NCBI GenBank assembly: GCA_043799105.1
Contig: JAZDOB010000031.1
Span: 1-44,903, forward strand
Length of the DNA: 44,903 nt
Direction: 5' to 3'
Origin: Candidatus Zambryskiibacteriota bacterium
GTDB lineage: Bacteria > Patescibacteriota > Minisyncoccia > Phycocordibacterales > WO2-35-19
The notes beneath the pieces are model-generated. The model was given only the letters and a program-made list of their open reading frames with translations, did no database searches and was not told the DNA's origin. Shown piece by piece: positions 15,740 to 16,212 of this stretch. Every line of letters starts with the position of its first letter. Position 1 is the first letter of the stretch. A program made the translations under genes and the position numbers.

Positions 15740-15812
15740 AAATTCCTGCCAGCAGTAGAGTAAATTTTCTATGGATATGATATCTTTATATTTATGGCAC
15801 AGCTTTTTTCTA

Positions 15813-15849
15813 CTCTCTCTCTCTCTCTCTCTCTCTCTCTCTCTCTCTC
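15813..15849. repeat. (CT)18 dinucleotide microsatellite
   Basis: 18 perfect CT units plus a C, between or within the divergent RT and avd-like reading frames. Confidence 0.95.
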
Positions 15850-15888
15850 GTTAACGCCTCGATACTTCAACGCATCAAAGAGTCCTAT

Positions 15889-16212
15889 TTGCTTTGGATA
15901 AGTATTCTTGACCATGTGCCTAAAGGCCAGCGCCACAGTATAGGCGCTCGCATTGAGAATAAATTTTTGGATCTGTTAGAACTTTCATATATAGCCTATT
16001 TTACAGAAAAAGATAAGAAAGTGGAAAGGATAAATAAGTGCATTTTGGATCTAGATGCCATAAAATTTTTAATTCACATAACTTGGGAAGGAAAACTGAT
16101 CTCACATAAACAATATGAAGAAATCGGAGCGAAATTAAAAGAAATCGGTAAAATGTTTGGCGGTTGGAGGAAGAATTTGGAAAATCCGGAAAAGAAAAAC
16201 CTTGCGAGATAG
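15889..16212 (+). CDS. Avd-like four-helix-bundle accessory protein of the DGR (5' end unresolved)
   Basis: HVPKGQRHSIGARIENKFLDLLE...GKLISHKQYEEIGAKLKEIGKMFGGW resembles Avd/23S-IVS four-helix-bundle proteins. The frame is open back to 15781 and encodes helix 1 (ASILQRIKESYLLW) with no canonical start before TTG 15889. Confidence 0.65.
   Translation: MLWISILDHVPKGQRHSIGARIENKFLDLLELSYIAYFTEKDKKVERINKCILDLDAIKFLIHITWEGKLISHKQYEEIGAKLKEIGKMFGGWRKNLENPEKKNLAR

Follow-up and report, generated by a model that had tools for sequence, protein, structure and literature searches.

Can a simple-sequence repeat decide whether a diversity-generating retroelement (DGR) is active? This question is raised by contig JAZDOB010000031.1 (assembly GCA_043799105.1) of a Candidatus Zambryskiibacteriota bacterium, whose 44,903 nucleotides (nt) were analysed as a whole and are called the window here. 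The window carries a complete DGR, with a reverse transcriptase (RT) gene on the minus strand, the accessory gene avd on the plus strand, a template repeat (TR), and a variable repeat (VR) with its target open reading frame (ORF), and a perfect CT repeat lies where the 5' ends of avd and RT meet. We consider slipped-strand phase variation of the whole DGR to be the best explanation of this arrangement, at a probability of about 0.6. That this tract is conserved, polymorphic and part of both ORFs is very probable, and on balance we also expect it to serve as a heritable ON/OFF switch for the activity of the DGR. The parts concerned, in window coordinates, are these:

15813 to 15849, both strands: simple-sequence repeat, (CT)18.5 on one strand and (GA)18.5 on the other, 37 nt, scored by Tandem Repeats Finder as one perfect period-2 array.
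15850 to 16212, plus strand: avd body, from VNASILQRIKE... to TAG 16210-16212, intact.
14816 to 15812, minus strand: RT body, running from the tract to its stop at 14816-14818, intact, with YADD present.
15794 to 15796, plus strand: putative start ATG of full-length Avd, antisense of an RT His codon (CAT).
15913 to 15915, minus strand: putative start ATG of full-length RT, antisense of an avd His codon (..PH[IV]PKG).
15771 to 15779, plus strand: two further ATGs of the third frame (15771 and 15777), which would join avd at a tract of 33 or 39 nt.
15874 to 15891, plus strand: Shine-Dalgarno (SD)-like motif and TTG 15889, reading ATC AAA GAG TCC TAT TTG, the usual annotated start, which gives the 107-residue (aa) form.
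15778 to 15786, plus strand: extended -10-like element, with TG at 15778-9 and TATCTT at 15781-6, ending 7 nt before ATG 15794.

The tract is the sole array of its kind that Tandem Repeats Finder reports in the 45 kb of the window, and in 100 dinucleotide-preserving shuffles of the window even (CT)7 is expected 0 times. Read in phase, it encodes (LS)n in avd and (ER)n in RT. A first-pass annotation, made from the letters of the window, had placed it in a control region between divergent genes; we find it instead inside a head-to-head antisense coding overlap of avd and RT. The reading-frame anatomy described there was reproduced in full, with one exception. The avd frame is open from 15781, directly after TGA 15778-15780, and reads SLSLSLVNASILQRIKESYLLWISIL, with TTG 15889 as its first ATG, GTG or TTG. 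ATG 15794 stands in a different frame that crosses the tract and stops at TAA 15899-15901, and in-silico edits show that a loss of 2 nt or a gain of 4 nt fuses it to avd. Contrary to what had been stated, it is not the only upstream ATG: those at 15771 and 15777 are in the third frame, which also runs through the tract and stops at TAA 15852-15854. On the minus strand, the RT frame does stay open through the tract to TAA 15851-15853. The RT N-terminus IISIENLLYCWQEF was correctly said to lie upstream of the first canonical start, TTG 15739, but the idea that a start is merely missing near the tract did not stand, as the putative start, ATG 15915, lies across the tract.

Whether such a tract is peculiar to this genome can be judged from its relatives. 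An Avd protein search returned 696 relatives in Patescibacteria, many of them called with N-termini such as M....SLSLSL-xNASILQRIKEGYL. Our locus set drew equally on species-representative genomes and on metagenomes, with 80 loci from each, and gave 139 distinct sequence contexts, and the tract scan covered pyrimidine runs only. A pyrimidine repeat is present at the same spot in 133 of these 139: it is pure (CT)n of 6-43 nt, directly ahead of xNASIL, in 105 loci, poly-C in 18, and a C-run followed by (CT)n in 10. Six were scored as having none. Two of the six (L137/L148), which belong to one sub-lineage, have poly-G of 9 or 13 nt on the avd strand instead. The type of repeat also turns over between near-identical flanks, from (TC)12 in L195-L198 to C8-9+TCTC in L201/L202. 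Since the place is kept while the type changes, it is a hypermutable pyrimidine repeat that is conserved rather than a particular sequence. RT diverges from avd in every locus for which upstream DNA was included. The proposal that the tract sets the avd frame from the upstream ATG is well borne out: both elements are shared by about 130 distinct loci.

The same survey bears on the most trivial explanation, a chimeric join made by an assembler through low-complexity reads, which had been named as an outcome that would undo the whole proposal. The window is a single consensus sequence, long dinucleotide repeats are error-prone, and look-ups of the exact Avd (107 aa), RT (307 aa) and RuvB proteins gave no match and hence no cross-check of the tract length in the window. 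The junction itself, with the RT and avd N-termini on either side, recurs in over 150 independent contigs, the work of many projects and assemblers, which excludes an artefact as the source of the tract, if not of its exact length in the window. We regard an assembly or sequencing error as a scarcely credible account of this locus.

Several lines of evidence suggest that avd starts upstream of the tract. In RT, the His codon antisense to ATG 15794 is CAT in 118 of 119 loci, compared with a background of 62%, and the plus strand consequently has an ATG 16-20 nt ahead of the tract. Downstream of the tract, avd offers no start codon before codon 14. Codons 3-8 of avd (A-S-I-L-x-R), directly after the tract, vary at synonymous sites (GCC/GCT/GCG, TCG/TCT/TCC, CGA/AGA) while the amino acids are conserved; such protein-level selection means that they are translated, so that the start must lie further upstream. 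An AlphaFold model of an in-frame Avd homologue has helices at residues 19-36, 39-65, 68-94 and 100-125, the first of them being ILQRIKEGYLIWVNVVPH, and a form started at TTG 15889 would lose half of this helix. In the same model the repeat-coded tail is disordered, with a predicted local distance difference test score (pLDDT) below 50, and a change in its length should therefore be tolerated. The third frame, entered from ATGs 15771 and 15777, is open in only 35 of 126 loci.

Upstream of this ATG lies the -10-like element. Its family consensus is TGnTAT(C/T)AT, placed 7 nt before the avd ATG; the TG is present in 101 of 130 loci, followed by TATCAT in 40 and TATTAT in 35. Synonymous sites are fixed in the RT codons that the element overlaps: I11 uses ATC in 95%, compared with a background of 26%, D/N10 is NAT in 106 of 106, and residue 9 is any amino acid that NAT encodes. 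The element looks like an extended -10 promoter embedded in the RT coding sequence, which would give a leaderless avd mRNA, and a leaderless mRNA would account for the strict need for AUG.

The RT side mirrors this picture. The avd His codon opposite the putative RT start is CAT in 136 of 137 loci (58% elsewhere in avd), which reads as an ATG in the direction of RT. Between it and the tract, no stop interrupts the codon-aligned antisense frame in 129 of 131 loci, whereas the neighbouring antisense frame is closed in 128 and open in three. The frame is open because avd avoids exactly those codons that create antisense stops: in its first 20 or so codons, TTA, CTA and TCA occur in 2 of 502 positions before the His codon versus about 24% in the rest of the gene. 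For Leu, TTA or CTA is used in 1 of 299 cases before the His codon and in 285 of 1214 after it, and for Ser the counts of TCA are 1 of 203 and 126 of 479. In the window, the stretch of RT from the tract to the conserved HKYKDIISIENLL contains CTG 15800-15802 but no ATG, GTG or TTG. Among 131 loci, the corresponding segment, which leads up to the conserved RT N-terminus (H-I-Y-D-D-I-I-S-x-E-N-L), offers a canonical start in 40, a near-cognate codon only in 25, and neither in 66. We infer from these patterns that avd and RT each start across the tract, within the 5' coding region of the other, in an overlap of about 120 nt; control of RT by the tract may be looser than that of avd in part of the family.

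In public annotations, Avd is given as 98, 107 or 115 aa (the call for the window itself, P0193, is 98 aa) and RT is placed at internal or antisense-frame starts. This inconsistency stems from gene callers, which are not equipped for antisense overlaps of such length or for tracts that are out of phase.

Could the tract be untranslated? It might serve as a polypurine SD-like leader of RT, as a spacer or H-DNA element between divergent promoters, or as an anti-SD mimic, with Avd made from the SD-like motif and TTG 15889 as the 107-aa form that gene callers usually choose, and RT made from the near-cognate CTG 15800-15802. In favour of this idea are codons 9-14 of avd, whose family consensus, ATC AAA GAG GGA TAT TTG, is near-invariant at synonymous sites (GAG 97% versus 27%, GGA 83% versus 19%, TTG 94% versus 19%). 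It would also suit the RT ATG found 2-5 nt after (GA)n in 40 loci and the random phases described below. Such a model leaves the invariant CAT/ATG pairs and the stop-free antisense frame unexplained, and it conflicts with the protein-level selection on avd codons 3-8, which form part of the helix that a TTG start would cut in half. An RT start directly beside the tract, whether an ATG 2-5 nt after it or the CTG of the window, was rejected as the general rule, given that AGG, CGG, AAG and the like stand at the aligned position in 66 of 131 loci, and no pairing is predicted between (CU)n and the SD-like AAAGAGGGA of the internal TTG. We therefore rate an untranslated tract as quite unlikely. The SD-like motif with its TTG could be a re-initiation site or mark the start of an internal Avd isoform. 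A mechanism in which an out-of-frame upstream ORF terminates and translation resumes at the TTG was set aside, as the off-frame stop positions are not uniform.

If both genes are read across the tract, their codon-aligned antisense frames mean that one class of tract lengths puts both in frame at once:

35 or 41 nt (in silico): Avd would be ON from ATG 15794, as MAQLFST(LS)nVNASILQ..., and RT would be ON from ATG 15915, as MVKNTYPKQIGLFDALKYRGVNE(RE)nSRKKLCHKYKDIISIENLL...
33 or 39 nt (in silico): Avd would be in frame with ATG 15771/15777 only, and RT would be without an upstream start.
37 nt, as assembled: both Avd and RT are without an upstream start.

The 37-nt allele of the window would thus be OFF for both genes. 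Across the family, long tracts fall into the three phases relative to the conserved ATG in a ratio of 38:45:48, which is uniform-like (p=0.55), and selection for the ON phase was rejected, in-frame loci not being enriched. Loci with little or no tract behave differently: five of the six without a tract and 10 of the 15 with a (CT) tract of 13 nt or less are in frame (pooled 15/21, p=4e-4). Such a preference among short or absent tracts, together with random phase among long ones, is what would follow from a start at the ATG and rapid drift of long tracts.

A non-adaptive reading of the same numbers is that a slippery tract simply breaks genes, and that the window and the other out-of-phase loci are pseudogenes of recent origin. 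In about 70% of loci the genes are out of phase, as this would predict, and some RT bodies are indeed broken. The out-of-phase loci keep intact bodies, in 91 of 93 cases for avd and 73 of 76 for RT, which argues against decay. Moreover, the tract persists at one position in more than 100 species while its type turns over among CT, C and G, TR/VR pairs still differ in an adenine-specific manner, and RT bodies with internal stops or frameshifts are commoner in phase than out of phase (8/32 versus 3/76, Fisher p=0.002, a post hoc comparison of small numbers). A mere mutational hazard is thus very unlikely. The eight in-phase loci with a broken RT are L003, L030, L074, L088, L106, L127, L149 and L150; small and post hoc as this contrast is, it hints that a locked-ON state may be costly.

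Evidence that the tract changes in length comes from relatives of the window strain. The closest relative, with an Avd 94% identical, is from well H43 of the Hainich aquifer and is represented by five contigs that have zero mismatches over 1000+1200 nt of flanking sequence. Their tracts are 23 nt in one assembly, 19 nt in three and 21 nt in one, and these lengths cover all three phases; the VR is identical among the 19-, 21- and 23-nt alleles at the level of consensus contigs. A second species, sampled ten times with zero mismatches over 600+700 nt, has tracts of 25 nt (seven samples), 27 nt (two) and 31 nt (one). In a poly-C lineage, C8, C10, C12 and C13 occur at about 1% flank divergence, and protein clusters at 90% identity include in-frame PP, PPP, PPPP and PPPPP variants. 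The comparison with related genomes that the first-pass annotation had called for thus shows a shared tract whose lengths differ between identical flanks. The phase variation proposed there is upheld as far as length polymorphism goes, in these relatives rather than in the window strain and in DNA rather than at the level of expression. Of the hallmarks of a contingency locus, we find a perfect tract of hypermutable length, a location in which a change of one unit would alter expression from the putative start sites, and, in the relatives only, length polymorphism among otherwise identical genomes.

The polymorphism also bears on programmed slippage at the RNA level, in which RNA polymerase would slip on (CT)n or poly-C, or the ribosome would shift by 2 nt onto an identical codon, so that any genomic length would yield a steady small fraction of in-frame Avd and RT and the tract would be a throttle instead of a heritable switch. 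This model is compatible with all of the anatomy described above, and it would explain both the roughly 70% of consensus genomes that are out of phase with intact bodies and the populations that show a single stable length. It does not sit well with the DNA-level length differences between identical flanks, or with the preference of short and absent tracts for the in-frame state, which is expected if the phase of the DNA matters. To our knowledge, transcriptional slippage is documented mainly for long A/T runs and not for dinucleotide repeats. On this evidence we judge RNA-level slippage unlikely. We take it and an internal Avd start to be the main rivals of slipped-strand phase variation.

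Under slipped-strand phase variation, the locus would work as follows. The tract would be a hypermutable repeat within a head-to-head antisense overlap of about 120 nt between two essential DGR genes. Avd would be translated from ATG 15794, probably on a leaderless mRNA, with the tract read as a disordered (Leu-Ser)n tail before helix 1, and RT would be translated from ATG 15915 through about 21 codons antisense to the avd N-terminus and (Glu-Arg)n into the conserved RT N-terminus. Slippage during replication would add or remove CT units, and these changes would switch targeted hypermutation on, reversibly and heritably, in a subpopulation of cells.

A number of points weigh against this model. 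The SD-like motif and TTG suggest an internal avd start that would be independent of the tract, and the 29% of loci that are in phase are what chance would give, while an untranslated tract would produce random phase as well. In the 40 of 131 loci with a canonical RT start after the tract, RT may be tract-independent, and in 108 of 131 a TTG in the second antisense frame could start RT in another phase. A generic sigma-70 scan gave no more hits than shuffled sequence, and the promoter is drawn from the family consensus. As to the polymorphism, at least six contigs agree on one 24-nt (TC)12 allele, and twelve other sets with identical flanks share one length, many of them being the same contig in two collections. 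Tract lengths in short-read assemblies are error-prone, and the 21-nt allele of the closest relative comes from a contig with 2x coverage. Our p-values treat related loci as independent, and the length variation is read from assembled contigs of relatives, at the level of DNA sequence.

How would such a locus compare with known systems? Besides sabA, the outer-membrane protein genes oipA and hopZ of Helicobacter pylori have CT repeats in their 5' coding regions. In sabA, a CT repeat of 6-10 units in the 5' coding region sets the frame by slipped-strand mispairing, in- and out-of-frame alleles coexist within and between strains with reference genomes often out of frame, and tract-length distributions are identical in complementary and genomic DNA (PMC2715451). 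The locus described here resembles sabA in that a (CT)n tract just after the start codon sets the frame, and sabA is the closest known mechanism. In contrast to sabA, which is one gene on one strand encoding a surface adhesin, the present tract reaches 21 units, is shared by two antisense ORFs, concerns the enzyme of a mutagenic retroelement and its cofactor, and is predicted from sequence to act as a switch. The closest two-gene switch is that of the Haemophilus influenzae hifA/hifB fimbrial genes, where a (TA)n repeat reportedly lies in overlapping divergent promoters (van Ham et al. 1993); there too, one dinucleotide repeat between divergent genes controls both. The hif switch is transcriptional and non-coding, acting through -10/-35 spacing, whereas control here would be translational, on both strands and within a coding overlap. 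Repeats that toggle enzymes are known from the phase-variable mod methyltransferases (phasevarions) and from copy-number switching of a 6-bp repeat in Salmonella mutL. Like these, the present locus would use a local hypermutable repeat to toggle an enzyme that alters many phenotypes or the supply of mutations, a second-order control of variability. Unlike their genome-wide effects, the machinery here diversifies one defined variable region, and two genes would be toggled together.

As a retroelement, the locus is similar to the DGR of Bordetella phage BPP-1 (avd-TR-brt, with the VR in mtd) in its DGR-type RT N-terminus, its four-helix Avd and its adenine-specific TR/VR pair at the 3' end of the target. 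Features not shared with BPP-1 are the divergent orientation of avd relative to RT, its antisense position relative to TR, the head-to-head overlap of the avd and RT ORFs, and the terminator-like hairpin after TR. Full-text literature searches found no paper linking a DGR or Avd to repeat-tract control or phase variation, and a large DGR survey makes no mention of such a tract (PMC5758913). As far as we can tell, a simple-sequence contingency locus joined to a DGR, and one repeat framing two antisense-overlapping genes, are undescribed.

The regulation of DGRs, and how the cost of an error-prone RT is limited, is largely unknown outside Bordetella phage. If the proposed switch is real, a DGR lineage in ultra-small, host-dependent bacteria would be gated by stochastic slippage, a form of bet-hedging on the diversity generator itself. 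This would explain many silent-looking DGRs in metagenomes, would make the phase of the tract a simple sequence marker, scorable in existing reads, that tells ON from OFF populations, and would correct a systematic error of Avd and RT annotation in the family. For the broadest version, that across a large Patescibacteria clade one repeat serves as a heritable, reversible master switch for targeted hypermutation with a minority of cells active, we would give even odds.

The remaining parts of the DGR in the window are these:

16226 to 16368, minus strand: TR, co-oriented with RT and antisense to avd.
16678 to 16820, minus strand: VR, at the 3' end of the target gene, covering its last 44 or so codons.
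16685 to 18493, minus strand: target gene, 602 aa, ending in the VR.
16190 to 16225, minus strand: hairpin and U tract, 11 bp, GC-rich, directly 3' of TR and overlapping the avd stop codon.

The window thus contains the RT, the Avd four-helix bundle and a TR/VR pair with adenine differences at the 3' end of a target ORF by which a DGR is recognized. The RT matches the RVT_1 profile at E=8e-24, RVT_1 being a general RT model that is not DGR-specific, and its N-terminal motif IISIENLLYCWQEF..GKKKRK is kept family-wide. Avd scores 56.9 bits against Pfam bAvd (cutoff 40) and 76.1 bits against NF033474, just below the cutoff of 80; in the profile alignment, profile position 2 falls on residue 4 of VNASIL. 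No PDB sequence matched the Avd profile, and the 602-aa target protein has no Pfam or NCBIfam match. TR and VR are 143 nt long and 83% identical, with 21 of 25 mismatches at TR adenines as read on the RT strand, and in all 98 loci with an identifiable TR/VR pair the TR lies beyond the stop codon of avd, on the strand of RT. The hairpin 3' of TR folds at -17.3 kcal/mol (z = -4.2) and is likely the terminator of the TR RNA. Such a terminator-like hairpin means that RT is probably not co-transcribed with TR, and a single transcript running through TR, antisense avd, the tract and RT was discarded as unlikely on this ground.

Rfam searches matched no family near the locus. The 5' RNA of avd is less structured than shuffled sequence (z = +1.3 and +1.75). 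In the minus-strand RNA from 15790 to 15920, a GGCACA/UGUGCC stem brackets the tract and pairs both start-codon regions, with z = -3.6 in the window; as a family feature this long-range stem was rejected, the median across the family being z = -0.7. Two loci of the survey, L140 and L145, are identical avd-RT modules on one 16.6-kb contig, and at L173 two avd copies lie in inverted orientation on one contig.

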